Shown here: piece after piece, positions 2,754-23,462 of the stretch
Layout of the letters: each line of letters starts with the position of its first letter
Numbering within the stretch: the first letter of the stretch is position 1
Origin: a virus
Lineage: Duplodnaviria; Heunggongvirae; Uroviricota; Caudoviricetes
Length of the DNA stretch: 64,000 bases
Direction: 5' to 3' (one strand)
IMG/VR virus record: IMGVR_UViG_647533160_000003
Notes under the pieces: model-generated
What the model was told of the DNA's origin: nothing
Databases searched by the model: none
What the model saw: only the letters and a program-made list of their open reading frames with translations
Program-made: the position numbers and the translations under genes

Positions 2754-3854
2754 TCACACTGCGCGGAATGCGATCTCGCCAGGTATTACTTCGCCTTGCC
2801 AATACATTTGGGCAGCAACGCGATCTGCGAGGTCACGATAAATAGCCGTAAATTCGCTATCTGGACGACTAATAACGGTTGGTGTTCCGTTATCCAGATC
2901 TTCACGAAGAGAGATATGAAGTGGCATTTGGCCTAACAACTGCGTGTTGTATTTCTCGGCCAGTTTCTGTGCGCCACCGGTGCCAAAAATTGGCTCGTGA
3001 TGACCGCAGTTACTGCAAATATGCACACTCATGTTTTCGACGATACCCAGTACCGGCACTTCGACTTTTTCGAACATCACAATGCCTTTCTTCGCATCGA
3101 TCAGCGCGATGTCTTGCGGCGTAGTTACCACAACCGCACCAGTTACAGGAATGTTCTGCGCCAGCGTCAATTGAATATCACCAGTGCCCGGCGGCATATC
3201 GAGAACGAGATAGTCCAGATCAGGCCACAGTGTTTCCTGCAACATCTGCATCAGCGCCTTGCTGGCCATCGGTCCACGCCACACCATTGCATTGTCGTCG
3301 GTGACCAGATAACCAATAGAGTTGGTTGCCAGGCCATGAGACATAATCGGTGCCATGTGAGTACCGTCCGGTGAGGTTGGACGTTGGTTTTCCGCGCCCA
3401 GCATGGTTGGAATTGATGGACCGTAGATATCGGCATCCAAAATACCAACTTTCGCACCTTCAGCAGCCAACGCCAGTGCCAAGTTTACTGCTGTGGACGA
3501 TTTGCCTACACCGCCCTTGCCTGAGCTTACGGCGATAATATTCTTAACGCCATTAATGCCTGGTTGGTTTTTGACGCGCTTAAGCGTGGCAATGTTGTAC
3601 GACAGCTTCCAGTCAATAGCCTTTGCGCCAGTGATACGGAGCAGATCACCACTACATTGCTCTTTCAGGTCTTCAAAAGGCTTATTCCACACGAAAGGCA
3701 TGATTAGTTCGACATGCAGTGTGTCATCCATCAACGCAACATGGTGTAACGCTTTAAGCGTAGTCAGGTTGTGTTTCAGGGTTGGGTGCTGAAAATTAGC
3801 CAGCGTACCGGCTACCATTGCTCTCAGGGCATCCGGCGATTTGGACTCGCTCAT
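2754..3854 (-). CDS. apbC: Fe-S cluster carrier P-loop ATPase ApbC/Mrp
   Basis: 366-aa ORF; deviant Walker A 'SGKGGVGKS', conserved CxxC 'CSNCGHH', overall ApbC/Mrp family pattern; divergent from metG as in enterobacterial genomes. Confidence 0.9.
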   Translation of the reverse strand: MSESKSPDALRAMVAGTLANFQHPTLKHNLTTLKALHHVALMDDTLHVELIMPFVWNKPFEDLKEQCSGDLLRITGAKAIDWKLSYNIATLKRVKNQPGINGVKNIIAVSSGKGGVGKSSTAVNLALALAAEGAKVGILDADIYGPSIPTMLGAENQRPTSPDGTHMAPIMSHGLATNSIGYLVTDDNAMVWRGPMASKALMQMLQETLWPDLDYLVLDMPPGTGDIQLTLAQNIPVTGAVVVTTPQDIALIDAKKGIVMFEKVEVPVLGIVENMSVHICSNCGHHEPIFGTGGAQKLAEKYNTQLLGQMPLHISLREDLDNGTPTVISRPDSEFTAIYRDLADRVAAQMYWQGEVIPGEIAFRAV

Positions 3855-4011: not shown

Positions 4012-7000
4012 ATGACCCAAGTCGCGAAGAAAATTCTGGTGACGTGCGCGCTGCCGTACGCTAACGGCTCAATCCACCTCGGCCATATGCTGGAGCACAT
4101 CCAGGCTGATGTCTGGGTTCGTTACCAGCGAATGCGCGGCCACGAGGTTAATTTCATCTGTGCCGACGATGCCCACGGTACGCCGATCATGCTGAAAGCA
4201 CAGCAGCTTGGTATCACACCGGAGCAGATGATTGGCGAAATGAGTCAGGAACACCAGACTGATTTCGCAGGCTTTAACATCAGCTATGACAACTATCACT
4301 CGACGCACAGCGAAGAGAACCGCCAGCTGTCTGAGCTTATCTATACTCGCCTGAAAGAGAACGGTTTTATTAAAAACCGCACCATCTCTCAGCTGTACGA
4401 TCCGGAAAAAGGCATGTTCCTGCCGGATCGTTTTGTAAAAGGCACCTGCCCGAAATGTAAAGCACCTGATCAATATGGCGATAACTGTGAAGTCTGCGGC
4501 GCAACATATAGCCCGACTGAATTGATCGAACCGAAATCGGTGGTTTCTGGCGCTACGCCGGTAATGCGTGATTCTGAACACTTCTTCTTTGATCTGCCCT
4601 CTTTCAGCGAAATGTTGCAGGCATGGACCCGCAGCGGCGCGTTGCAGGAGCAGGTGGCAAACAAAATGCAGGAGTGGTTTGAATCTGGTCTGCAACAGTG
4701 GGATATCTCCCGCGACGCACCTTACTTCGGTTTTGAAATTCCGAACGCGCCGGGTAAATATTTCTACGTCTGGCTGGACGCACCGATTGGCTATATGGGC
4801 TCTTTCAAGAATCTGTGTGATAAGCGCGGCGACAGCGTAAGCTTCGATGAATACTGGAAGAAAGATTCCACCGCCGAGCTGTATCACTTCATCGGTAAAG
4901 ATATCGTTTACTTCCACAGCCTGTTCTGGCCAGCAATGCTGGAAGGCAGCAACTTCCGCAAGCCGACCAACCTGTTTGTTCACGGCTATGTGACAGTGAA
5001 CGGCGCGAAGATGTCCAAGTCTCGCGGCACCTTTATTAAAGCCAGCACCTGGCTGAATCATTTTGACGCCGACAGCCTGCGCTACTACTACACCGCCAAA
5101 CTGTCTTCGCGCATTGATGATATCGATCTCAACCTGGAGGATTTCGTTCAGCGCGTGAATGCCGATATTGTTAACAAAGTGGTTAACCTGGCCTCCCGTA
5201 ATGCAGGCTTTATCAACAAGCGTTTTGACGGCGTGCTGGCAAGCGAACTGGCTGACCCGCAACTGTACAAAACCTTTACTGATGCCGCTGAAGTGATTGG
5301 CGAAGCATGGGAAAGCCGCGAATTTGGTAAAGCTATCCGTGAAATCATGGCATTGGCTGACCTGGCTAACCGCTATGTCGATGAACAGGCTCCGTGGGTG
5401 GTGGCGAAGCAGGAAGGTCGCGATGCAGATCTGCAGGCGATTTGCTCTATGGGCATTAACCTGTTCCGCGTGCTGATGACGTACCTGAAACCGGTACTGC
5501 CAAAACTGACTGAACGTGCAGAGGCATTCCTCAATACGGAACTGACCTGGGATGGTATCCAGCAACCGCTGTTGGGCCATAAAGTGAATCCGTTCAAAGC
5601 TCTGTATAACCGTATCGATATGAAGCAGGTTGAAGCACTGGTGGAAGCGTCTAAAGAAGAAGTCAAAGCCGCTGCCGCACCGGTAACTGGCCCGCTGGCA
5701 GACGATCCGATTCAGGAAACCATCACCTTTGACGACTTCGCCAAAGTTGACCTGCGCGTGGCACTGATTGAAAACGCGGAGTTTGTCGAAGGNNNNNNNN
5801 NNNNNNNNNNNNNNNNNNNNNNNNNNNNNNNNNNNNNNNNNNNNNNNNNNNNNNNNNNNNNNNNNNNNNNNNNNNNNNNNNNNNNNNNNNNNNNNNNNNN
5901 NNNNNNNNNNNNNNNNNNNNNNNNNNNNNNNNNNNNNNNNNNNNNNNNNNNNNNNNNNNNNNNNNNNNNNNNNNNNNNNNNNNNNNNNNNNNNNNNNNNN
6001 NNNNNNNNNNNNNNNNNNNNNNNNNNNNNNNNNNNNNNNNNNNNNNNNNNNNNNNNNNNNNNNNNNNNNNNNNNNNNNNNNNNNNNNNNNNNNNNNNNNN
6101 NNNNNNNNNNNNNNNNNNNNNNNNNNNNNNNNNNNNNNNNNNNNNNNNNNNNNNNNNNNNNNNNNNNNNNNNNNNNNNNNNNNNNNNNNNNNNNNNNNNN
6201 NNNNNNNNNNNNNNNNNNNNNNNNNNNNNNNNNNNNNNNNNNNNNNNNNNNNNNNNNNNNNNNNNNNNNNNNNNNNNNNNNNNNNNNNNNNNNNNNNNNN
6301 NNNNNNNNNNNNNNNNNNNNNNNNNNNNNNNNNNNNNNNNNNNNNNNNNNNNNNNNNNNNNNNNNNNNNNNNNNNNNNNNNNNNNNNNNNNNNNNNNNNN
6401 NNNNNNNNNNNNNNNNNNNNNNNNNNNNNNNNNNNNNNNNNNNNNNNNNNNNNNNNNNNNNNNNNNNNNNNNNNNNNNNNNNNNNNNNNNNNNNNNNNNN
6501 NNNNNNNNNNNNNNNNNNNNNNNNNNNNNNNNNNNNNNNNNNNNNNNNNNNNNNNNNNNNNNNNNNNNNNNNNNNNNNNNNNNNNNNNNNNNNNNNNNNN
6601 NNNNNNNNNNNNNNNNNNNNNNNNNNNNNNNNNNNNNNNNNNNNNNNNNNNNNNNNNNNNNNNNNNNNNNNNNNNNNNNNNNNNNNNNNNNNNNNNNNNN
6701 NNNGCTGTTGGGCCATAAAAGTGAATCCGTTCAAAGCTCTGTATAACCGTATCGATATGAAGCAGGTTGAAGCACTGGTGGAAGCGTCTAAAGAAGAAGT
6801 CAAAGCCGCTGCCGCACCGGTAACTGGCCCGCTGGCAGACGATCCGATTCAGGAAACCATCACCTTTGACGACTTCGCCAAAGTTGACCTGCGCGTGGCA
6901 CTGATTGAAAACGCGGAGTTTGTCGAAGGTTCTGACAAACTGCTGCGCCTGACACTGGATCTCGGCGGAGAAAAACGTAATGTCTTCTCAGGCATTCGTT

Positions 7001-7182
7001 CCGCTTATCCAGATCCACAGGCACTGATTGGTCGTCACACCATTATGGTGGCTAACCTGGCTCCGCGTAAGATGCGCTTCGGTATCTCTGAAGGCATGGT
7101 GATGGCTGCTGGCCCCGGCGGGAAAGATATCTTCCTGTTAAGCCCGGATGCCGGTGCTAAACCTGGCCACCAGGTTAAGTAA
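4012..7182 (+). CDS. metG: Methionyl-tRNA synthetase MetG, interrupted by assembly gap (N-terminal catalytic part 4012-5792; C-terminal tRNA-binding part 6704-7182)
   Basis: ATG at 4012 ([29 protein letters not shown], class I HIGH motif), 'KMSKS' at ~5010; C-terminal tRNA-binding domain after gap; gap plus duplicated flank makes true length and frame uncertain. Confidence 0.85.
5568..5792. repeat. Left copy of ~225-bp direct duplication flanking the N-gap
   Basis: Sequence gctgttgggccataaagtgaatccg...gagtttgtcgaagg is repeated at 6704-6929 with one extra A (ataaaagtg). Confidence 0.95.
5793..6703. other. Assembly gap (911 N) inside metG
   Basis: Contiguous run of n characters. Confidence 1.
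6704..6929. repeat. Right copy of duplication flanking the N-gap (1-nt indel relative to left copy)
   Basis: Direct comparison with 5568-5792. Confidence 0.95.
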
Positions 7183-7201
7183 TTAAACAACCTCTGTTCG
7201 C

Positions 7202-7229
7202 AATGCCCGGCAACACGCTGGGCATTTTC
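7202..7229 (+). terminator. Rho-independent terminator of metG
   Basis: Hairpin atgcccgg-caacacg-ctgggcat followed by TTTT, 20 nt after metG stop. Confidence 0.7.
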
Positions 7230-7266
7230 ATATAGACACAATCCCTCCTGATTTACACAAGCCCTA

Positions 7267-7279
7267 AAACAATTTGTTT
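7267..7279. promoter_or_regulatory. 13-bp palindrome AAACAA-N-TTGTTT (site 1)
   Basis: aaacaatttgttt. Confidence 0.6.
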
Positions 7280-7317
7280 TCTACCTTTTGTTGATTGAGA
7301 TAATAAGCCACATAAGA

Positions 7318-7330
7318 AAACAAATTGTTT
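7318..7330. promoter_or_regulatory. 13-bp palindrome AAACAA-N-TTGTTT (site 2), 14 nt upstream of ATG 7344, preceded by GATAAT
   Basis: aaacaaattgttt. Confidence 0.6.
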
Positions 7331-7343
7331 CGGAGTGGTTGAA

Positions 7344-7643
7344 ATGTTGAACATTACCCAAGCCTACCAGGTGGCATTGATCAGTTCATCTCATACATCA
7401 GAGGAAGATGCTCGCCGATTCATGATCGCAAGCAATGAACTGGATTGGGTTTCACAAATTGAGTACGGTTGCATTGTCCACGCCGGGTTACAGGACGATG
7501 ACTGGAAAGATAACTTGCGTCGATATGGTATATCCGAGGGCGCGATTTCGAACATTCAGAAGGTACTTGATGTAGGCTTCGACTCTGTACATTTCGATTG
7601 TGGCGCACCGGTCGTTGAAGGGCTTGAGTGCTGGCAATGGTAA
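7344..7643 (+). CDS. Hypothetical early protein
   Basis: ORF (track 7335, GTG) with GGAG RBS 8 nt before ATG 7344; preceded by conserved palindrome at 7318-7330. Confidence 0.55.
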   Translation: MLNITQAYQVALISSSHTSEEDARRFMIASNELDWVSQIEYGCIVHAGLQDDDWKDNLRRYGISEGAISNIQKVLDVGFDSVHFDCGAPVVEGLECWQW

Positions 7644-7679
7644 TCCGGCAATCGCTTCATACTAGATAACGGAGAATTT

Positions 7680-7865
7680 ATGCTTAAAGAAGACTCATAT
7701 CTACTAAAGGCGCTTGAAATGCGTGGCGTTGAACCTACAGTGAAAAACGCTCACGATATCTACCTTCAGTTTTCGACAGAGCTGAAACAGCTCATAAATA
7801 AATATGGAGTGAACGACTCCAGCGTCAAAGCCATGATAGATGATGAATTAGACCATCTCATCTAA
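7680..7865 (+). CDS. Hypothetical small protein (61 aa)
   Basis: ORF with RBS-like 'acggagaatttatg'; operon position after previous gene. Confidence 0.45.
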   Translation: MLKEDSYLLKALEMRGVEPTVKNAHDIYLQFSTELKQLINKYGVNDSSVKAMIDDELDHLI

Positions 7866-7959
7866 TCAAACCGTTGATAATGGCGGTCACAATTTGATTC
7901 TTTTCTATAAGAATCCGTTGATCGCCACTACTTCCCTTCCATACCCGCAATCACATCCT

Positions 7960-8760
7960 TAAATATCAATAATTTATAGTTGTTTATACAATCAAGAAAA
8001 CAACTGAATAACAGATCAACGAAACGTCAACGCTTTCACCTGATTTGGTCTAAAAAGTTGACGTTTTCACACATCACTTCTTATACCCGTAATCCCACGC
8101 AGCAGATAGCGCCACAGCGTCCAAATTTCACCACAGACGACTCAACACTACCAACAAAAACACACGCTCAAAATCGCTCCCGTTGCGTTACACAACCATA
8201 TAAACAACTTATTTCCAGGCATAACAAAACAACTAAATAACACACATGCCATTCCCAAAAACAACCAACCTCTTTATGGCAGGCTACCGAAAAGACCCAC
8301 CTCTTCTTCCCAGGCTACCGGACAACCAACCTAACTTTCACAGGCAATCCGAAAACATTCATACGCGCGATACTCACGACACGCCATTCCCCAAACAGCG
8401 AAGAAACACAGAACCACTGAACCCCCAACGAAGCCTGTAACCGCAAGGATTCTCTCAATCCCAAAAGACACGAAACAGAACAATCACGGGAAACGCCATT
8501 ACCCAATACACGAATAACTACAAAAGCCTTTCACGCACTCCAGACAAACACAATAACGAAAGGAATCGCCCACCTGCCATTACTCCATATACGGAGAAGA
8601 ACAATCACCAAAACGACGAGAACACCCCACAGAAGAACCACCGCAAAACGAACGAAACCATTTACACCGACAGAGAGAACAACACACCCAATTCACCAAC
8701 AGGAATAGTCGCCGTATAGAACGCTCTGGAAGGAGTGAGCATTAACGCCTATAGAGAGGT
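7960..8760 (+). other. Strand-asymmetric C+A-rich noncoding region with degenerate ~30-bp repeats
   Basis: Plus strand almost devoid of G and T over ~800 bp; repeated caggctaccg units near 8281-8342; ORFs here have non-protein-like composition. Confidence 0.6.
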
Positions 8761-9496: not shown

Positions 9497-9510
9497 TCAA
9501 TTCGCGGTGG

Positions 9511-9732
9511 GTGCTTGAGCTGATGACTCGTGATGATGCACCTGCTTTGATGATTTGCGACATGGGTGAAGATGCTGACTTTATGGATATGAGCGAATTT
9601 TGTGTGGACACATACAACCGCAGCCAGAAGTACTACTTCACATGCGATAGCGAGAATGACGTGATTTCTAAGGTCTATCTTCACCTTGTCCAGCATTGGG
9701 ACGTTCAGGAGTTTCTTGAAGTATTCGCGTAA
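9511..9732 (+). CDS. Hypothetical acidic small protein
   Basis: 73-aa ORF (GTG start in track; ATG at 9523). Confidence 0.45.
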   Translation: MLELMTRDDAPALMICDMGEDADFMDMSEFCVDTYNRSQKYYFTCDSENDVISKVYLHLVQHWDVQEFLEVFA

Positions 9733-9861
9733 CCTCAACCAAAGCCAGCAATGCTGGCTTAACTTCTCTGTGGCCGCAGGGAAGAACCTGCATATCGCTC
9801 ATGCGCCTGATCAATATGCTTTGTAGCCGTTTTCTTACTGCTATTATTTACGCCATTGAGA

Positions 9862-9874
9862 AAACAAGTTGTTT
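9862..9874. promoter_or_regulatory. 13-bp palindrome family (site 4)
   Basis: aaacaagttgttt. Confidence 0.6.
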
Positions 9875-9885
9875 ACGGAGTTGTG

Positions 9886-10197
9886 ATGAAAAAATCATTG
9901 GTTCTTGGTCTGGACAAAGACCAGAAGCGAAAAGAGAAGCCTGCGCTGGTTGCTCAATTAACTTTGCTGGACATCGTTGCCAATGGAACCTCTATTCGTC
10001 TGTTCCGTGAAACAGCGGTGTCTTTCGATAAAAACACCTTTACTCGTTATGTAATGAATGTTCGTCGCCAGCGTGGAAAAGGCTGGGTGGCATTTCAAAG
10101 AATGTGGCCGGAACATCAGCTCGAACTGGCTTTGATGGAAGTTAACCGCGTGGCCCAGCAAGAAATTCAGAGAGCATCAGTGATGGCAATAGCCTGA
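9886..10197 (+). CDS. Hypothetical early protein
   Basis: ATG 9886 with ACGGAG RBS, 12 nt after palindrome 9862-9874; followed by terminator. Confidence 0.55.
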   Translation: MKKSLVLGLDKDQKRKEKPALVAQLTLLDIVANGTSIRLFRETAVSFDKNTFTRYVMNVRRQRGKGWVAFQRMWPEHQLELALMEVNRVAQQEIQRASVMAIA

Positions 10198-10231
10198 TAA
10201 TGTGCAAGTGGTAATTAGTCGACAGTACGAC

Positions 10232-10260
10232 AGCCCCGCCATCCTTACGGGGCTTTTTTG
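10232..10260 (+). terminator. Rho-independent terminator
   Basis: agccccgcc-atcctta-cggggct + TTTTTT. Confidence 0.8.
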
Positions 10261-10323
10261 TATTGTAAGTACATACCTACGGCTATAAAATATAAAAATA
10301 ACCAAGACACTACGGAGAGTGAA

Positions 10324-10719
10324 ATGACCGTTAAACGCGAAAAACTGACAGTTGATGTTTACTATGCCTCTGAAACCGCCGAAGGTAAGAATGTGGCAAA
10401 AATCACCGTTGTTACGTACAACACCGAAACTGGTGCCGAAGTCCAGGCCAGTACGATCGTGCGTAAAGGTGATGCCTCCGGCGGCGAGTACGCGACTCAA
10501 TACCAGTCTATTTTCGATGCAACTGACCCGCTGCTGCTGAAAATCGAGAACTACTTCCGCCAGGTTGATGAAGAGGTGTTTGAAACCATGATGAATATGG
10601 TTAACACCGTATTCGCCTCCAGCCTGAATACCAACACTACCTGGATTGGTCAGTACGGCCTGCGCATTACCTCCGGCATTCCTGCTGACACCTTAATTCC
10701 TGAAAGCGTATTCGCTTAA
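10324..10719 (+). CDS. Hypothetical protein
   Basis: ATG 10324 with GGAGAG RBS; 131-aa ORF. Confidence 0.55.
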   Translation: MTVKREKLTVDVYYASETAEGKNVAKITVVTYNTETGAEVQASTIVRKGDASGGEYATQYQSIFDATDPLLLKIENYFRQVDEEVFETMMNMVNTVFASSLNTNTTWIGQYGLRITSGIPADTLIPESVFA

Positions 10720-16280: not shown

Positions 16281-16559
16281 TTACGGCAACCTGCTCAGTA
16301 TTTCCTCTAAATCTTTTTTTGTCATATTGGAGTTTTCATAGATGCGCATGATTTTCTCACGCGTCTTAGCGGAAACCCCAACGGCAGATGTGACTTTGTC
16401 AAATTCAGCCATAGTCATCGTCTCCAGAATGGCATTGATAACTTCAGCCTTAGACATCTTGATTTTTTTCTCTTTGAGTTTTATTTGAAATTTTCCAAGT
16501 TTTTCATTGGCCTTATCAGACAATGCCACTTGGCAATAAGTTGTTTTTTTTTCGCTCAT
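16281..16559 (-). CDS. Small hypothetical protein (92 aa), possible DNA-binding regulator
   Basis: ORF immediately downstream of the helicase gene; Lys-rich; weak RHH-like pattern (inference). Confidence 0.4.
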   Translation of the reverse strand: MSEKKTTYCQVALSDKANEKLGKFQIKLKEKKIKMSKAEVINAILETMTMAEFDKVTSAVGVSAKTREKIMRIYENSNMTKKDLEEILSRLP

Positions 16560-16561
16560 AA

Positions 16562-18121
16562 CTAATCTCGTTTCAGAATTCCAAAATCGAATGCGCCATC
16601 AATAGGCAATACACCTTCCGCAAAGCCAGGTGTGGTGTCGATGATGTGTTTTCGCTCATAAGAGTGAGACAACAGGTATTTGTTGCTAGTGTCAATGAAA
16701 TCAGTGATAAAACACACGTTTGCCTGATTCTTCTTGGCTCGTAAGCCACGACCGACACGCTGCCTCATTTCAACTTCTGCTTTCCCACCACCAGCAAGAA
16801 TGACCGCACCAACGCTTGGCACATCAACACCGACATCCAGAATAGTCGAGCCTATTAAAACATCTATTTCTCCAGACGCTAAACTGTTCAGCTTTGCTTG
16901 CCTTGTCGCCTGGTTAGATTCCCCATAGATGAAGTCAACTCTAAGGCCTGACTCCTTCATCATCTCCATCAGGATTTGCCCGTGGCGTTTAAGACGAACT
17001 AGAGTCATACAATTGAGAGAATGTTGCTTATAGAGCAATGCTTCGCGAACAATGGCCTCATTACGTCCCAAATTATACACGATCCCCAACTGATAAGCCT
17101 TTTGGTAGGCAGTGCTCATACCTACTCTAAAATTGAGATGTTTATTGGCAAGTTCTGCCTTGATTCTGACCTCGTCTGGCTTGTAGGCAACTTTATGATA
17201 AAGGAAGTACGGTTTTGCCAGAATGCCTCGATCAATCAGGTACTTTTCTGTGACTTTAATTTCAATTCGCCCGGCCACAGCCATCAGACGCATGTTGGCT
17301 TCTGTAGAATCCTTCATGAACGGCGTGGCCGTAAGCGCCAGACGATAGTCTGCGTTCACACATAATCTGGCAATTTCATAGAAATTAGAACCTGAAGACT
17401 CATGCGCCTCTTCCAGAATAAGCAGAGACACACTTGAAAGGAAGCGTTTCACCAAGTCCCGACGTTTGAGGTGGTAGCTCTTCTTATCTGGAGTTGCATC
17501 GCGTGGTGGTTCTTCAAGGAAACTTGCCAGAGTTTGAACTGTAGCGACGTTGATATGTCGTGATACCTGGAACTCACCCGAGCCAATGACTCCAACCTTT
17601 TGGTCTTTTAACCACGGTTCGCCATTTTTGGCGCGGTAGTCGATGGATCTCTGGAAGTTTTCAGCCATTTGAAACATCAGAACAGAGCGGGTTGTTAAAA
17701 ATAATGTCATTCGACCGATACGTGCAGCTGCTTTGCAGGCAACGTTAGATTTCCCACCACCAGTAGCGATCTGGGCAATCATCATTCCCTCTCGAACTAG
17801 TGTTTCCACAGTCTGATCCTGATACGCATAATCAGGATTGTATGGGAATGGGTTAACCGCCGGATTTGGTTTACCAAGCGCCGGGGCTTTGTCTTTGCGG
17901 ATATGAACACATTTGATGCCCGCCTTGTTCAAGTTCGCCGCTACAGGCTTGGCAAAGCCAGCAGGGAACGAGTTTTTACTCCAGTTGAACATCGTGCTTG
18001 TGCCCTTCCAGTCGCCAGTCTCGACTTCGTAGCTCAACATTTGCTGCACCAGTTGCTTTACCTTGTCATCTGCGCCAGAAATAAGCGCATTTACTGCGTT
18101 AGATACAATCCGAACAGTCAT
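16562..18121 (-). CDS. Superfamily-2 DEAD/DEAH-box helicase
   Basis: Walker A 'IATGGGKS', DEAH-like 'LILEEAHE', motif III 'LALTATP', C-terminal helicase domain motifs (QRVGRGLR). Confidence 0.8.
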   Translation of the reverse strand: MTVRIVSNAVNALISGADDKVKQLVQQMLSYEVETGDWKGTSTMFNWSKNSFPAGFAKPVAANLNKAGIKCVHIRKDKAPALGKPNPAVNPFPYNPDYAYQDQTVETLVREGMMIAQIATGGGKSNVACKAAARIGRMTLFLTTRSVLMFQMAENFQRSIDYRAKNGEPWLKDQKVGVIGSGEFQVSRHINVATVQTLASFLEEPPRDATPDKKSYHLKRRDLVKRFLSSVSLLILEEAHESSGSNFYEIARLCVNADYRLALTATPFMKDSTEANMRLMAVAGRIEIKVTEKYLIDRGILAKPYFLYHKVAYKPDEVRIKAELANKHLNFRVGMSTAYQKAYQLGIVYNLGRNEAIVREALLYKQHSLNCMTLVRLKRHGQILMEMMKESGLRVDFIYGESNQATRQAKLNSLASGEIDVLIGSTILDVGVDVPSVGAVILAGGGKAEVEMRQRVGRGLRAKKNQANVCFITDFIDTSNKYLLSHSYERKHIIDTTPGFAEGVLPIDGAFDFGILKRD

Positions 18122-18203
18122 AAACCTCTTTCCTTAGTGCCTTTTGTATGTTATTTGGCTATTATAATAAGTAAGTGATTACTTAGCGGATTGTAGCAAT
18201 AAA

Positions 18204-18884
18204 ATGGATGTAAAAATCACGATTTTGCAGGTTGATGTTGCCAACCTTCGCCCGAATACCTGGAACACCAATTCGGTTGGTGCGCAGAATTTTGAAAAAC
18301 TGAAAGGTTCTATCGAAAAATTGGGCTTTTTTAAGCCAATTTTGGCTCGTGAACTTGAAGATGGATTTTTTGAAATCCTCGGCGGCGAACATCGCTGGCG
18401 TGCCGCTATTGAGCAAGGAATTTCAACGGTTCCAGTGCTTTCTGTGGGCAAAATTAGCGATGTCGTAGCTAAACAGATGTCACTGGTGGACAACGAGCGA
18501 TACGGTGAAGACGACCAAATCGCATTGCAACGCTTCATTGAAGAAATTCAGTCAGAACTTGACTATCAACTGTCTGAAATCGCCCCGTATGACGACGAAA
18601 TCTCGATGGTTTTAGCAAAAGAGGCGGCAATCGACCTTGAAGCACTGGAGGCGTTGTCTCGTGGTAGTGATGAGCCTGTCGATACCGACAAACGAGAGAA
18701 AACCGAACGTGTGGGTGCGGAACATCAGACCATGCGCTTCAAAGTAACTTTCGATGCGTCAGATCGTGTTGCAGAAACCATAAAAAACATCATCAAAGAG
18801 CAGGCTATTAACACCGGTAATGAAATGGAGAACGCTGGTGAGGCTCTGGTGTGGCTGGTCGACTACTACAAGGAGCGTATGTAA
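18204..18884 (+). CDS. ParB/Srx-like nuclease-domain protein
   Basis: N-terminal ParB-type motif 'EILGGEHRWRAA'; acidic C-terminus. Confidence 0.65.
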   Translation: MDVKITILQVDVANLRPNTWNTNSVGAQNFEKLKGSIEKLGFFKPILARELEDGFFEILGGEHRWRAAIEQGISTVPVLSVGKISDVVAKQMSLVDNERYGEDDQIALQRFIEEIQSELDYQLSEIAPYDDEISMVLAKEAAIDLEALEALSRGSDEPVDTDKREKTERVGAEHQTMRFKVTFDASDRVAETIKNIIKEQAINTGNEMENAGEALVWLVDYYKERM

Positions 18885-19552
18885 TGACCAAAAAGTTTGA
18901 AATCGTATATCGCGACCCGGCAGATCTTATTCCCTATGAGATGAATGCCAAAAAGCATGATGAACAGCAGATCCGAGATCTGGCCGCAGCCATTAAAAAG
19001 CGTGGATTTGACCAGCCAATTACGGTCGATAAGAACGACGTAATTATTACTGGCCACGGCCGCCGTGAGGCTGCAATTTTTGCTGGACTTGAGCGCGTAC
19101 CGGTTATTGTTCGCGATGATCTCAGTGATGACGAGGTTCGTGCGAAGCGCCTTGAAGATAACCGACTTGCCAGCATTGATTACGATGCAATTAAGCTACA
19201 GAAAGAGCTTGAGTCGCTTGTTCTGGACGATATCGAGGTTTTCGGCTTTGAAGAGCGTGAGTTGAATGTTCTCGTTGGCAGTATGACAGAAGAAATGGAC
19301 ACCGATTCGCTAGTTATCGATCTTGGCGAAGAAACTAAACGACAGAAGGATGAACACACCGAGATCAGTCGTGAAGTTGCAGCGGAAGAAGTACGTGTTG
19401 TCGACGTATTGGGCTTTAAAACGCTCCCTGCTGGCTCTGCCATTGTTGTTGGTGATTTGCTTGCCCACATGGAAGAAATGACGGGAGAAAGCGGGGTAGA
19501 CGCATTTGTGGCATATGCGGAGAAGATCTCTTCCGGGGAGATGGCTGCATGA
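18884..19552 (+). CDS. Second ParB/Srx-like nuclease-domain protein
   Basis: ATG overlapping upstream stop (TAATG); motif 'IITGHGRREAA'. Confidence 0.65.
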   Translation: MTKKFEIVYRDPADLIPYEMNAKKHDEQQIRDLAAAIKKRGFDQPITVDKNDVIITGHGRREAAIFAGLERVPVIVRDDLSDDEVRAKRLEDNRLASIDYDAIKLQKELESLVLDDIEVFGFEERELNVLVGSMTEEMDTDSLVIDLGEETKRQKDEHTEISREVAAEEVRVVDVLGFKTLPAGSAIVVGDLLAHMEEMTGESGVDAFVAYAEKISSGEMAA

Positions 19553-20214
19553 GCAAATACATCATCAACGTATCGTTTCAGACACGCGTAAATAAAACCA
19601 CGCGCACGTTGGAAATCGCTGAGTCGTTCGGGCTTGGCCTGGACGAAAAAGAGTGGACGCTTTACGACAATCTGGAGCTGGAAGTGAAGCAGGGCGATGT
19701 GGTGTACATCACCGGCCAATCCGGTTCCGGCAAATCCGTTGTGCTGCGCGAGTTGCAACGCCAGATGAAGAATGAAGGGCTTTCTGTAGCCTCCATCGAT
19801 GATTTTACCTTCGATAATGAGGTTAACGTCATCGATCAGTTGGGCAAAACGACCAGTGATGCGCTTGGGTTGTTATCTATGGCTGGTCTGAACGATGCAT
19901 ATCTGTTTGTTCGCAAGCCTTCTGAAATGTCAGACGGCCAGAAATATCGTCTCAAGATTGCCAAACTGATTGAGTCAGGCGCTAAAGTATGGGCTGCTGA
20001 CGAGTTCGGCGCTGTTCTCGACCGTGTAACCGCTCAGGTTGTGGCGTCTAACCTCCAGCGTGCCGCTCGAAAGGTTGGTGCGACGGTAATGGTGGCGACG
20101 ACTCACGAAGACCTGAAGAACGCGCTGCGCCCGGATATGCAGATCACCAAGCACTACAAAGAACGCGTGAAGGTGGAATATCACAATGGTAGTCATGATG
20201 AGGTCCATTCATGA
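19549..20214 (+). CDS. ABC-type ATPase domain protein
   Basis: Walker A 'GQSGSGKS', signature-like 'SDGQKYRL', Walker B 'VWAADEF', H-loop 'ATTHED'. Confidence 0.65.
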   Translation: MSKYIINVSFQTRVNKTTRTLEIAESFGLGLDEKEWTLYDNLELEVKQGDVVYITGQSGSGKSVVLRELQRQMKNEGLSVASIDDFTFDNEVNVIDQLGKTTSDALGLLSMAGLNDAYLFVRKPSEMSDGQKYRLKIAKLIESGAKVWAADEFGAVLDRVTAQVVASNLQRAARKVGATVMVATTHEDLKNALRPDMQITKHYKERVKVEYHNGSHDEVHS

Positions 20215-21101
20215 CGGACATCATCATTAAACGCTACCGCCCTGAAGAGTTTCCGCGTCATCTGGACTTTCTGGAGCGAATGACTGTTACAAAGGGAACT
20301 GTAGAGGACTGGCACGCTCTTAAGTCGCTTCACTACAAAACAGACGGCAAACCTTTCGCGCCAACTTACTATCGCTGCGAACTTGATGACCGTCTGGTGG
20401 GCGTCGTGGTTATGGCTTACCCGAAACTACTGTTGGCACCTCGCCACCGCATGTTTCCTAAGTTGAAACCAACCACTAATACCACCGTGGCTAACCAGTA
20501 CTGGGGTCGGTACGTGAATAACAACTTTGCGGTGATCAGTCGCTCAGTTGTGGATACTCAGTATCGTGGCGTAGGCGTCTCTTATCGAATGATTAACCTG
20601 GTTAGCAGGATGCATGACCGGCCAATCATTGAGATCCAGTCCTCGATGAGCAAATACAATCCCTTCGCCATGAAAGCAGGGTTTAAGTTCATCCGCCCTG
20701 AGCGACCGAAGAGCTATGAAAGTGCACTGCGTGTATTCCAGCGCCATTTCCGTTCCGACCCGGGTGATAACGAGGCGATCGTCAAAGAGTTGTTCGCAAT
20801 GAGCGAGTCCCGTCGTCGCCGTGCACTGCGTGATCTGGTGGCGGACTACCACAAGAACAGTTCCCTGGCAAAAGCTGGGAGGAATCGTGGCACGACAATT
20901 CAGGACATTGCCGACAGTCTGGTGGACGAGGCCAGCATTGTGAAGCTGCTCAAGGACATTCACAACCTGAGCTTTACGTCTCCGTTGTATGGTGTGTATC
21001 GAAACCCTGACTTTGGTCGTCGACTGCCTGACACGCTGCCACTGCTGGCATTCGACAAACAACCTTTGGATAAACCGTTAGAAATTGCTTTACCGGCATA
21101 A
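20211..21101 (+). CDS. Hypothetical protein with GNAT-like acetyltransferase motif
   Basis: 'VVDTQYRGVGVSYRM' resembles GNAT motif A (Q/R-x-x-G-x-G/A); overlaps upstream stop. Confidence 0.4.
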   Translation: MTDIIIKRYRPEEFPRHLDFLERMTVTKGTVEDWHALKSLHYKTDGKPFAPTYYRCELDDRLVGVVVMAYPKLLLAPRHRMFPKLKPTTNTTVANQYWGRYVNNNFAVISRSVVDTQYRGVGVSYRMINLVSRMHDRPIIEIQSSMSKYNPFAMKAGFKFIRPERPKSYESALRVFQRHFRSDPGDNEAIVKELFAMSESRRRRALRDLVADYHKNSSLAKAGRNRGTTIQDIADSLVDEASIVKLLKDIHNLSFTSPLYGVYRNPDFGRRLPDTLPLLAFDKQPLDKPLEIALPA

Positions 21102-21110
21102 GGATTTGCC

Positions 21111-21377
21111 ATGACGTTAACCGACAAACAAAAGGACATCATCAAAACGCTCAATCTCGGTTATGAGCGAGGTCATCTACTTGATCTGGACGAATTGCTT
21201 GAAGTTTTGCCGTACAAGACAACCAAGCAAAGTATCCAGTTCTCAATTCGCGCTCTGATAAAAAAGGGGCTGGTGGAGAAAGGGCATACGCGCCAACGCA
21301 GTGACAATCGCTATCACCGCCGAACTCTTGGGTTAACCACTTTAGGTCGAGCCAAAGCGAAGTTACTGGTGATGTAA
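21111..21377 (+). CDS. Small basic protein, possible winged-helix regulator
   Basis: 88-aa ORF; followed by long palindromic element 21401-21457. Confidence 0.4.
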   Translation: MTLTDKQKDIIKTLNLGYERGHLLDLDELLEVLPYKTTKQSIQFSIRALIKKGLVEKGHTRQRSDNRYHRRTLGLTTLGRAKAKLLVM

Positions 21378-21400
21378 TCGGTCTGGGAGCTTATTTAAAG

Positions 21401-21457
21401 ACCTGCTTCTGTATATATAAATAATAAGTAACTTATTAAATATATACGGAAGCAGGC
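21401..21457. repeat. Long palindromic hairpin element, copy 1 (acctgcttctgtatata...tatacggaagcagg)
   Basis: ~17-bp stem with AT-rich ~25-nt loop; near-identical copy at 55339-55393. Confidence 0.8.
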
Positions 21458-21495
21458 TTAATAAGACATGCCCAGACCTAATTAAACACCCCAGA

Positions 21496-21533
21496 AAACA
21501 AATTGGTTAGCATATGCAGTAAACAAGTTGTTT
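21496..21533. promoter_or_regulatory. Two 13-bp palindrome-family sites (7, 8) upstream of terminase small subunit gene
   Basis: aaacaaattggtt and aaacaagttgttt. Confidence 0.55.
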
Positions 21534-21573
21534 TAGAGCGCATGGACGCGCTCTGTGTGTTTTAGAGGGATCT

Positions 21574-22206
21574 ATGACGGTCGAAAAAGACGAGGTAAAA
21601 ACTCGCCTGACACCAGCGGAGTGGGCCGAAGCTGAAGCCAAATGGACGTCAGGCGAATATACACTCTCAAAGCTGGAGGAAGAGTACGGCATTCGTCGTG
21701 AAACACTCTCCAGACATTTCAAAAAGCGAGGATTAGAGAAAGGCGCGGACTCTGTTGGGAAGATGGTTCGTGAGTCTCTTAAATCTGACGCAGAGCTTCG
21801 CGCTAAAGCCCGTGCGGAAAAGATAGAAGAACGTCGTACACGTTATGACGGCTGGGCGTATGCGTTGGGGCAGATGGTGATGGTCGAAGTCACTACGGCC
21901 AAACGTGAGGGTAAGCCTTTAGGGGCGATTGAGGATTCTCTCAAGAGCTTACAGAGAGCCAGTAATACCCTTGCAAAATGCTTTGAAGTTTCGTCCAAAG
22001 CATTGGGCATGGATCATGCGGAAAATGACGAGGAAGAAATTCCGAACCTGGTATTTGGTGAGCTTACGCCTTCCCAGGTGGCGAAATTACGTCAGGAAGA
22101 CGACGAGCCTGAAATCATCGATGACGAATTGCTTGAGACGTTGGAAGAAGAAGCTCTAAGCGAATTTGGTGCGACAGATGATGGAAGTGAAGGGGAGGAC
22201 GAATAA
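21574..22206 (+). CDS. Terminase small subunit (putative)
   Basis: Position immediately upstream of large terminase; basic N-terminal region, highly acidic C-terminus. Confidence 0.6.
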   Translation: MTVEKDEVKTRLTPAEWAEAEAKWTSGEYTLSKLEEEYGIRRETLSRHFKKRGLEKGADSVGKMVRESLKSDAELRAKARAEKIEERRTRYDGWAYALGQMVMVEVTTAKREGKPLGAIEDSLKSLQRASNTLAKCFEVSSKALGMDHAENDEEEIPNLVFGELTPSQVAKLRQEDDEPEIIDDELLETLEEEALSEFGATDDGSEGEDE

Positions 22207-23462
22207 TGGCAATCCCGTCCTCGCTCAGTCTTGTGCAACTGCATTCTGGACAGATGAAAGTCTTCCAGTCTCCGCATCGATTTAAAGTTGTTTGTGCTGG
22301 TCGACGCTGGGGAAAATCCCGGTTGTCGATCTCCACTATTATTCGTGCGGCGGCAAAGGAAAAAAAGCAAAGAGTCTGGTATGTCGCTCCTACTTACCAG
22401 ATGGCTCGCCAGATTTTGTGGGACGATCTACAGGAAGTTCTGCCTCGTAAGTGGGTTAGGAAAAAGAACGACACCACGATGACAATCGTGTTGAAGAACG
22501 GTTCGGAGATCGCCCTCAAAGGTGCTGATAAGCCTGACACTCTGCGCGGCGTAGCGTTGCATTTTGTAGTGCTTGATGAATTTCAGGATATGAAGGCTGA
22601 CACCTGGTACAAGGTGTTACGACCTACTCTTTCATCGACACGCGGCGGTGCACTGATCATTGGTACGCCAAAAGGCTTCTCGGAATTTCACAAACTGTGG
22701 ACTATAGGCCAGAACGTAGAGCTGCAAAGAAAGGGACAGTGGAAGAGCTGGCAGTTTGTAACTGCTGATTCGCCGTTTGTGCCTACGGCGGAAATTGAAG
22801 CTGCTAAGAACGATATGGACCCTAAATCGTTTGCTCAGGAGTACCTGGCCAGCTTTGAAAATATGTCCGGGCGCGTTTACTACCCGTTCGATCGAAACGT
22901 GCATGTTAAACCGCTTCAGTTCAACCCTCGGTTGCCTATATGGGTAGGACAGGACTTCAACATTGACCCGATGTCTTCCGTAATTTTGCAACCTCAGCCA
23001 AATGGTGAGCTATGGGCAATTGATGAATTGGTGCTCTTTTCCTCTAACACGGCAGAGGTTTGTGATGAGCTTGAGAGGCGCTTCTGGCGCTGGAAATCAC
23101 AGATAACGGTATTTCCAGATCCGGCAGGTGCTTATCGCCAACATGCTCGCGGGGAGTCTGACGTAGACATATTCAAAGAGAAGGGATTCTTACGTGTCGA
23201 TTATTCGAAAAAGCACCCGCCAATTGCGGATCGTGTTAATGCTGTTAACCGAATGCTGATGACCGCATCTGGAGATATCCGGCTGTATATCGATCCGAAG
23301 TGCAAGCATTTGATTGATTCACTGGAAAAGGTCATCTACAAGCCTGGAACACGAGATATGGATAAGACAGGTGGCATTGAGCATAGTGCAGACGCATTGG
23401 GCTATCCAGTACATCGTAGGTATCCAGTCAAAAACCGTGTTATTCTTGGTGGTTCTCGATAG
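22206..23462 (+). CDS. Terminase large subunit
   Basis: Walker A 'CAGRRWGKSRL', Walker B 'HFVVLDEFQDM', C-terminal nuclease-like region; overlaps upstream stop. Confidence 0.85.
   Translation: MAIPSSLSLVQLHSGQMKVFQSPHRFKVVCAGRRWGKSRLSISTIIRAAAKEKKQRVWYVAPTYQMARQILWDDLQEVLPRKWVRKKNDTTMTIVLKNGSEIALKGADKPDTLRGVALHFVVLDEFQDMKADTWYKVLRPTLSSTRGGALIIGTPKGFSEFHKLWTIGQNVELQRKGQWKSWQFVTADSPFVPTAEIEAAKNDMDPKSFAQEYLASFENMSGRVYYPFDRNVHVKPLQFNPRLPIWVGQDFNIDPMSSVILQPQPNGELWAIDELVLFSSNTAEVCDELERRFWRWKSQITVFPDPAGAYRQHARGESDVDIFKEKGFLRVDYSKKHPPIADRVNAVNRMLMTASGDIRLYIDPKCKHLIDSLEKVIYKPGTRDMDKTGGIEHSADALGYPVHRRYPVKNRVILGGSR

Follow-up and report, generated by a model that had tools for sequence, protein, structure and literature searches.

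Two ParB/Srx-fold proteins, a minimal ABC ATPase and a GNAT-fold protein encoded upstream of terminase in an SSU5-type phage-plasmid

Just upstream of the terminase genes in a 64,000-nucleotide (nt) stretch of tailed-phage DNA (IMG/VR record IMGVR_UViG_647533160_000003; hereafter the window, always meant at its full length) lie four tightly packed genes that encode two different ParB/Srx-fold proteins, here called ParB1 and ParB2, a minimal ABC ATPase and a GNAT-fold protein of 296 amino acids (aa). Escherichia phage Cyrano matches the region at 99.2% identity and Salmonella phage SSU5 at about 85%, and a 3.2-kb block containing the module is present in 772 PLSDB plasmids. Because of this identity and the plasmid occurrence, the window can be assigned by sequence to an SSU5-type phage-plasmid of E. 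coli. The plasmids come mainly from Klebsiella (307), Escherichia (218), Enterobacter (91), Yersinia (62) and Salmonella (49), and 740 of the 772 are non-mobilizable.

The genes of the module and the features around it are collected in Table 1. At the junction of the two parB-like genes (TAATG) the start codon of ParB2, ATG 18884, shares one base with the ParB1 stop codon TAA at 18882-18884. Since a Shine-Dalgarno (SD) motif, AAGGAG, also stands at 18870-18875, ParB2 is read as starting there (222 aa) and not at GTG 18851, which would give an open reading frame of 233 aa. At the ParB2/ABC and ABC/GNAT junctions the genes overlap by 4 nts (ATGA), and an SD-like motif precedes each of the three junction starts. 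Nine bases after the 296-aa gene begins a gene for a basic 88-aa protein with weak winged helix-turn-helix (wHTH) matches (Sta1/Lrs14, 0.003; PADLOC CARF-wHTH, 5e-5), which is kept at the same position in relatives and reads as the last gene of the module operon. Its product may be a DNA-binding partner of the module or a late-gene regulator; the gene occupies the position where Q would be found in phage lambda. A spacer of 196 nts then leads to the TerS-like gene, which overlaps the TerL gene by one base and whose product had no match among PDB sequences. Thus the first-pass annotation of this DNA, which had described two consecutive ParB/Srx-fold proteins, a 221-aa ABC ATPase and a GNAT-like protein translationally coupled upstream of terminase, is borne out in each of these points, and the four-gene unit that it delimited is real, except that the operon runs on to the wHTH gene.

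Table 1. Coordinates of the module and of other features in the window.
Feature	Position	Strand	Remarks
ParB1	18204-18884	+	226 aa; Pfam ParB_N E=3e-13; contains GGEHRWRAA; phrog_723
ParB2	18884-19552	+	222 aa; Pfam ParB_N E=1e-8; contains GHGRREAA; phrog_930 (1e-112), phrog_498 (1e-31)
Minimal ABC ATPase	19549-20214	+	221 aa; Pfam ABC_tran E=6e-13; phrog_293
GNAT-fold acyltransferase-like protein	20211-21101	+	296 aa; phrog_886
Basic winged-helix-like gene	21111-21377	+	88 aa; phrog_900 (2e-45); pI 10.2
UvsW-like DEAD/ResIII helicase	16562-18121	-	divergent from ParB1; adjoins ParB1 in all relatives
Helicase/ParB1 divergent intergenic region	18122-18203	+	perfect TATAAT at 18163-18168; 18-mer at 18164-18181
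AT-rich palindrome, ~100 bp	21380-21478		between wHTH gene and TerS; inner arms within 21402-21456
Intrinsic-terminator-like hairpin and T-run	21534-21565	+	9-15 nts before TerS start codon
TerS-like gene	21574-22206	+	phrog_867; annotated 'Terminase small subunit' in Cyrano
TerL	22206-23462	+	annotated 'Terminase large subunit' in Cyrano; portal gene next
Second copy of the palindrome	55339-55392		nearly intact; upstream of replication genes
ParA	52285-52953		deviant Walker A KGGPGKS
ParA partner	52953-53312		119 aa, basic; coupled to ParA
Mrp/MinD-like ATPase	2754-3854	-	separate from the ParA locus
92-aa gene	16281-16559	-	beside helicase; CYRAN_117, phrog_1466
GC trough	6001-8000		GC 0.297 vs ~0.46 on both sides

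By its motifs the 221-aa protein belongs to the ABC ATPase superfamily: Walker A (GQSGSGKS), the signature (SDGQ), Walker B (VWAADE, with the catalytic Glu) and the H-loop (TTHE) are all present, at an unusually short distance between Walker A and signature. Its neighbour of 296 aa matched nothing in Pfam, NCBIfam or PADLOC; the PDB sequence search brought up AlkD alone, at chance level (E ~1). An AlphaFold2 model (pLDDT 86), based on 39 aligned homologues that share 36 invariant positions, has the GNAT alpha/beta fold; its core lies at about residues 24-160, and a helical domain makes up the C-terminus. The acyl-CoA loop, R119-G-V-G122-V-S, is conserved in the family as RGxGx(S/A/G), with R119 and G122 invariant in all 39 sequences, and GNAT motif B is retained as EIQSSMSKYNPFAxKAGF. 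Curated GNAT models (Acetyltransf_1/7/10) are reached weakly, at 2e-5 to 7e-4, by fused relatives of the protein, and not by the 296-aa protein itself. As modelled, this protein is a GNAT; it is strongly basic, with an isoelectric point (pI) of 9.8.

The relationship between these two genes becomes clear from their distant relatives. A profile of the 296-aa family found 895 relatives in a search of 1.84 billion representatives. The close ones are about 300 aa long; the distant ones measure 450-500 aa, carry ABC_tran at their N-terminus and match the profile at about residues 200-480. In phmmer comparisons with such fusion proteins the ABC ATPase aligns to residues ~1-206 (1e-42 to 1e-63) and the GNAT protein to residues ~208-460, so that the two halves align contiguously and in the order ABC then GNAT. 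Split pair and fusions have the motifs TxRTxxVAEAFGxG, SDGQKYR, DEFxxxLDRxTA, HY(K/R) and YRGxGxx in common. JGI and the Cyrano record label proteins of this kind 'ABC-type ATPase fused to a predicted acetyltransferase domain' (COG2401). Judged by these alignments, the ABC and GNAT genes together represent, in split form, a widespread COG2401-type ABC-GNAT fusion, the name being that of the source annotations only. The PHROG label 'ABC transporter ATP-binding subunit' for phrog_886 is then a carry-over from the fusion and is wrong for the GNAT half.

Further domains are joined to the fusion in some relatives. Eight triple fusions of 640-700 aa have a ParB/Srx domain with the motif DGEHR or DGEQR N-terminal to ABC-GNAT. 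They are matched by the ParB1- and ParB2-family hidden Markov models at 1e-4 to 5e-15, and Pfam ParB_N falls slightly below threshold in two of them. In four other relatives PolB stands N-terminal to ABC-GNAT, and one has a TFIIB repeat behind it; every accessory domain found fused to ABC-GNAT is DNA-related. Within the ABC domain of one relative lies an intein (LAGLIDADG/Hint). Where the two genes are separate, insertions concentrate in a hot spot at the ABC|GNAT junction (in SSU5, at 7977-8231 of locus L002): the gap ranges from a 4-nt overlap up to 2.1 kb with 0-3 small unrelated genes, among them Phage_gp49_66, RyR and DUF2829.

In ParB1 and ParB2, profile matches to the solved ParB, Noc and Spo0J proteins are limited to the N-terminal domain of about 100 residues, over which the two proteins are 33% identical to each other. 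Neither the ParB helix-turn-helix (HTH) nor the ParB C-terminal dimerisation domain (CTD) was found in these profile matches or in the ParB1 model (pLDDT 81.6), in which a confidently modelled ParB/Srx domain is followed by two helices, a disordered acidic linker (residues 152-172) and a C-terminal strand-helix-helix. In ParB1 the motifs GGxHR and DNxRYG are invariant, in ParB2 GHGR and DN; the arginine of the nucleotide pocket is thus retained and the canonical GERR replaced. ParB2 also matches the N-terminal region of PADLOC MTase_II (3e-17) and, on sequence, is nearest to the ParB domain of phage ParB-methyltransferase fusions. A homologue search with ParB1 returned only near-identical proteins of Klebsiella and E. 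coli, and diversity came from the use of a distant orthologue as query.

The module is kept as a unit over large evolutionary distances. Split modules were followed in 80 diverse IMG/VR loci, of which 59 had enough sequence upstream and 66 enough downstream. ParB1, ParB2 and the helicase were present in 59/59 and TerL in 66/66, in the order helicase (minus strand), ParB1, ParB2, ABC, 0-3 small genes, GNAT, small wHTH, spacer, TerS-like, TerL and portal. At 42-47% identity the order persists in a 3.3-Mb contig, an Ectothiorhodospira genome and a Tara marine contig, and it is found in Pseudomonas phage nickie and Rhizobium phage RHEph10 as well; overall it holds without exception among relatives at 40-50% identity. 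In every proteobacterial relative examined the module lies directly upstream of TerS/TerL. Its recurrence in the PLSDB plasmids and in all 59 diverged viral loci places the four-gene arrangement far beyond what chance would be expected to produce, and the suggestion that the four genes are partition and housekeeping genes without co-conservation finds no support.

The link to terminase extends to the fused form of the gene. Fused genes were sampled from 79 IMG/VR loci and from 80 genome loci, the latter by a scan with a 15-sequence fusion alignment. They derive mostly from metagenome-assembled genomes (MAGs) of Bathyarchaeia, and also from Methanocella, Nitrososphaeria, a Bacillota isolate and a Limnocylindrales MAG. 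Where the flank sufficed for a count, a Terminase_6N TerL gene stood immediately upstream on the same strand in 42/77 IMG/VR and 43/67 genome loci, about 60% of those counted, and just downstream in 8 further loci. The pairs overlap by 4 nts in 34/76 cases, and in 69/76 the start codon is at most 20 nts from the TerL stop codon. In a prophage of the Bacillota species Fredinandcohnia humi the fusion has the integrase side on one flank and, on the other, Amidoligase_2, a small gene, TerL, an SPP1-type portal and capsid. Since fused genes adjoin TerL in archaeal and other (pro)viruses, the neighbourhood of packaging genes does not appear to be peculiar to the SSU5 lineage, and the packaging association proposed at first gains comparative support from homologues translationally coupled to TerL. 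The Amidoligase_2 gene (2e-47; 9510-10400 of the prophage locus L169) would add another putative group-transfer enzyme at this position. Several TerL/ABC-GNAT pairs occur per Bathyarchaeia MAG (e.g., on the CAYRSV01 contigs). In IMG/VR the fused gene usually lies 0-1.5 kb from a contig or provirus end, which may reflect a provirus boundary, a packaging start or an artefact of trimming.

The intergenic regions on both sides of the module contain candidate control sites. The outer arms of the palindrome behind the wHTH gene are GGTCTGGG and CCCAGACC, and its inner arms CCTGCTTCTGTATATATAAATAATAAGT and the complement. Besides the second copy, its 18-nt core recurs with 2 mismatches 23 nts upstream of ParB1 (site 18164-18185), where it overlaps the TATAAT. 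The core motif thus occurs at three loci in the window, where 0.11 matches would be expected. The GenBank records of SSU5 and Cyrano are linearised 8-9 nts beyond the palindrome centre. The palindrome contains TATAAATA and may act as a late promoter; it may equally be an operator or have a part in packaging. A comparison of 17900-22400 with Rfam gave, on the palindrome, chance matches to miRNA hairpins only. The region between helicase and ParB1 is probably the promoter/operator of the operon. A sigma-70 scan gave no convincing promoter. The terminator-like hairpin before TerS has counterparts at this position in SSU5, nickie and three metagenomic relatives, which suggests that the late operon is under antitermination control.

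Some observations concern the surroundings of the module. The 92-aa gene beside the helicase (CYRAN_117) is reported to be expressed 12-fold over background in the lysogen, in contrast to its neighbours (PMC9928086 Table 1). The sharp GC trough suggests a recently acquired island. In Cyrano the counterpart of the ParA partner gene carries the annotation 'RelE/ParE putative toxin', apparently in error.

How might these proteins work together? The 1- to 4-nt overlaps with their SD motifs, the invariant order, the fusions to ParB, PolB and TFIIB and the basic GNAT protein argue for one DNA-associated unit, and a link to packaging is indicated because TerL adjoins and often overlaps the fused gene. 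Catalytic competence is predicted, since all ABC motifs are present together with a conserved acyl-CoA loop in a GNAT fold. The interpretation that we tentatively favour, at a little under an even chance, is that the four genes and the wHTH gene form one lytic-cycle operon for a DNA-associated machine, which carries out ATP-driven acyl transfer to DNA or to a DNA-bound protein at the interface of replication and packaging. This estimate covers the interpretation as a whole. The data show the domain identities, the relation of split to fused forms, the co-conservation, the linkage to TerL and the separation from the ParA locus; that DNA serves as platform, which acceptor receives the acyl group and what the ParB subunits do is inferred. 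The core would be an ABC-ATPase/GNAT acyltransferase in two polypeptides, which most other lineages have as a single protein, with the two ParB/Srx-fold proteins as partner subunits. With ATP the ABC subunits would form dimers and take hold of replicated phage DNA or of a target bound to DNA, whereupon the basic GNAT subunit would move an acyl group from acyl-CoA to the target, either a DNA base, by analogy with Mu Mom or, on RNA, with the ATPase-coupled GNAT TmcA/NAT10, or a DNA-bound or packaging protein. With their conserved GxxR pockets and small, dimer-like C-terminal domains, the ParB/Srx proteins might contribute nicking or a recruitment gated by NTP. Such a machine would act when replicated DNA is handed over to terminase, marking or preparing the DNA bound for capsids.

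A number of points weigh against acyl transfer on DNA at this interface. No direct evidence exists for any substrate, and the literature searches, which focused on the module and of which none was aimed at virion-DNA modification, gave no report of modified SSU5-type virion DNA. The structural neighbours of the GNAT protein are mostly protein or small-molecule acetyltransferases; Mom ranks 9th among them in the PDB and 2nd in BFVD, with a score that is not distinctive. ParB1 (pI 4.55) and ParB2 (pI 4.53) are both very acidic and have no recognised DNA-binding domain. A ribbon-helix-helix reading of their C-termini is a topological impression only: it had no Pfam support, and the hhalign comparison of the ParB1 and ParB2 C-termini was not significant. 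Most archaeal fusions occur without any ParB, so that ParB would be accessory and not part of the core. Finally, a terminator separates the module from TerS, and in the SSU5 lineage the adjacency to terminase could be plain lineage synteny.

Several other explanations deserve consideration. Database names ('ParB/RepB/Spo0J family partition protein'), the ParB_N matches of both proteins and a preprint that uses SSU5 'parB' as a typing marker would make the parB-like genes plasmid partition genes, with the ABC and 296-aa genes as unrelated neighbours. Yet the HTH and CTD of ParB are both missing, no ParA adjoins, parS was not identified, and ParB is fused to ABC-GNAT in relatives. A complete locus of ParA and its coupled partner, likely the true partition locus, lies 33 kb off. 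Nickie and RHEph10, phages of unchecked lifestyle, keep the module too, although RHEph10 has a ParA-like gene about 3 kb from it, and CYRAN_119-122 are not among the genes expressed in LF82 lysogens (PMC9928086 Table 1). On the grounds of the ParA gene elsewhere, the lacking HTH, this conservation and the absence from the lysogen-expressed list, the module is not a partition system, as the first-pass annotation had already supposed, and partition is scarcely credible as its function. Even less credence can be given to an ABC transporter or auxiliary metabolic gene, as which PHROGs and several GenBank records have it: phrog_293 and phrog_886 are labelled 'ABC transporter' and the closest PDB sequences to the ABC protein are nucleotide-binding domains of transporters, but this reading is already contradicted by the absence of any membrane or substrate-binding component from the operon and from every relative examined, by the GNAT rather than ABC fold of the phrog_886 proteins and by the DNA-related domains of the partners. 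It is also very unlikely that the four genes are functionally unrelated and have only a syntenic phage lineage in common. The proteobacterial lineage does keep its synteny all the way from helicase to capsid, so that co-occurrence there is not independent evidence; however, the module genes are translationally coupled, and fusions of ABC to GNAT (hundreds) and of ParB to ABC-GNAT (eight) occur in unrelated archaeal elements.

Two alternatives remain. In a packaging-initiation accessory that does not modify DNA, the ParB/Srx proteins would serve as nickases or NTP switches at pac or cos, much as HNH proteins assist some terminases, and ABC-GNAT would regulate or acetylate TerL, TerS or portal. 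The translational coupling of TerL and ABC-GNAT in archaeal (pro)viruses, the position directly upstream of TerS/TerL in proteobacterial relatives, the large palindrome in between, where the SSU5 and Cyrano records are cut, and the nicking activity reported for ParB domains of ParB-methylases (reviewed in PMC5512222) all speak for such a role. A TerS-like gene coupled to TerL is nevertheless already there, the PolB and TFIIB fusions point beyond packaging, and the terminator stands between the module and the late operon; on balance we regard this explanation as unlikely, though next in rank to the favoured one. Somewhat less probable still is a host-takeover or anti-defence acetyltransferase that acylates nucleoid, defence or repair proteins of the host during lytic growth, with the ParB-fold proteins as adaptors or decoys. 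It would agree with the structural neighbours of the GNAT fold, with acidic ParB linkers that could mimic DNA, with a module not seen among lysogen-expressed genes and with the small variable genes at the ABC|GNAT junction, as in arms-race loci. Against it stand the extreme conservation of order and sequence from Proteobacteria to Archaea and the coupling to TerL, which are atypical for host-specific counter-defence; moreover, no anti-defence family was matched, and PADLOC models gave only generic ABC/AAA and ParB-methyltransferase domain matches to the module proteins.

What is new here has to be separated from what was catalogued before. The gene families are on record and the ABC and GNAT pair has a COG name, so that the earlier statement that the module matches no named system holds for PADLOC and not for the ABC and GNAT genes, which fit the catalogued, though uncharacterised, COG2401-type family. 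ATPase-coupled GNATs and ParB/Srx-coupled DNA enzymes are likewise recognised kinds. Literature searches found no description of the module, of the ParB or PolB fusions or of the coupling to TerL (the Nickievirus query was too broad to be useful), and no paper on the COG2401-type family. Phage-plasmids of the SSU5 type abound in Klebsiella, E. coli, Enterobacter, Yersinia (pMT1-like) and Salmonella (pHCM2-like), and their module is routinely mislabelled as 'partition protein' and 'ABC transporter'. To view it as one machine provides a testable hypothesis for a core lytic function, acylation of DNA or of a packaging protein. It also gives the orphan COG2401 family, by way of its links to TerL, ParB and PolB, a functional setting for the first time, and adds another use of the ParB/Srx fold outside partition. 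Should DNA be the target, phage genomes would be modified in a new way, which would bear on restriction evasion and on the spread of phage-plasmids. The bolder proposition of a new class of virus machinery, in which an ABC-ATPase-powered GNAT covalently acylates DNA or DNA-bound cargo at the hand-over to terminase under the guidance of ParB/Srx NTP switches, is for now doubtful. If true, this machinery would be common to proteobacterial siphoviruses and phage-plasmids of ~105-120 kb, including the relatives of pMT1 and pHCM2, and to archaeal tailed proviruses, where it is translationally coupled to TerL.

Among known systems, the proposed acyl transfer would follow the logic of TmcA/NAT10 (Kre33), in which a P-loop ATPase is joined to a GNAT. 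This enzyme makes N4-acetylcytidine in RNA and needs ATP hydrolysis to present the base to the acetyltransferase. Its ATPase is helicase-like, however, not of the ABC type, and has no detectable sequence relation to the module. Mom of phage Mu is a GNAT-fold enzyme that modifies adenine in DNA and is encoded by a late gene; it has neither an ATPase nor a ParB partner, and no sequence similarity to the GNAT protein of the module. With the CTP-dependent ParB proteins of the ParABS, KorB, Noc and PadC systems, ParB1 and ParB2 share a homologous N-terminal ParB/Srx domain and its GxxR arginine and D/E-N motif, but they differ in the absence of HTH and CTD, in the lack of an adjoining ParA and in their acidity, and the RR of the ParB family has become HR in ParB1 and GR in ParB2. 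The phage ParB-methyltransferase fusions (phrog_498, PADLOC MTase_II) follow a common principle, a ParB/Srx domain together with a DNA-modifying enzyme; in these the enzyme is a methylase, whereas ParB2 has no methylase domain and its partner, ABC-GNAT, is encoded separately. Closest of all are the COG2401-type proteins such as MK0520, both halves of which are homologous to the ABC ATPase and the 296-aa protein. They are single polypeptides, while the SSU5-type module uses two genes that overlap by 4 nts and follow two ParB-fold genes.

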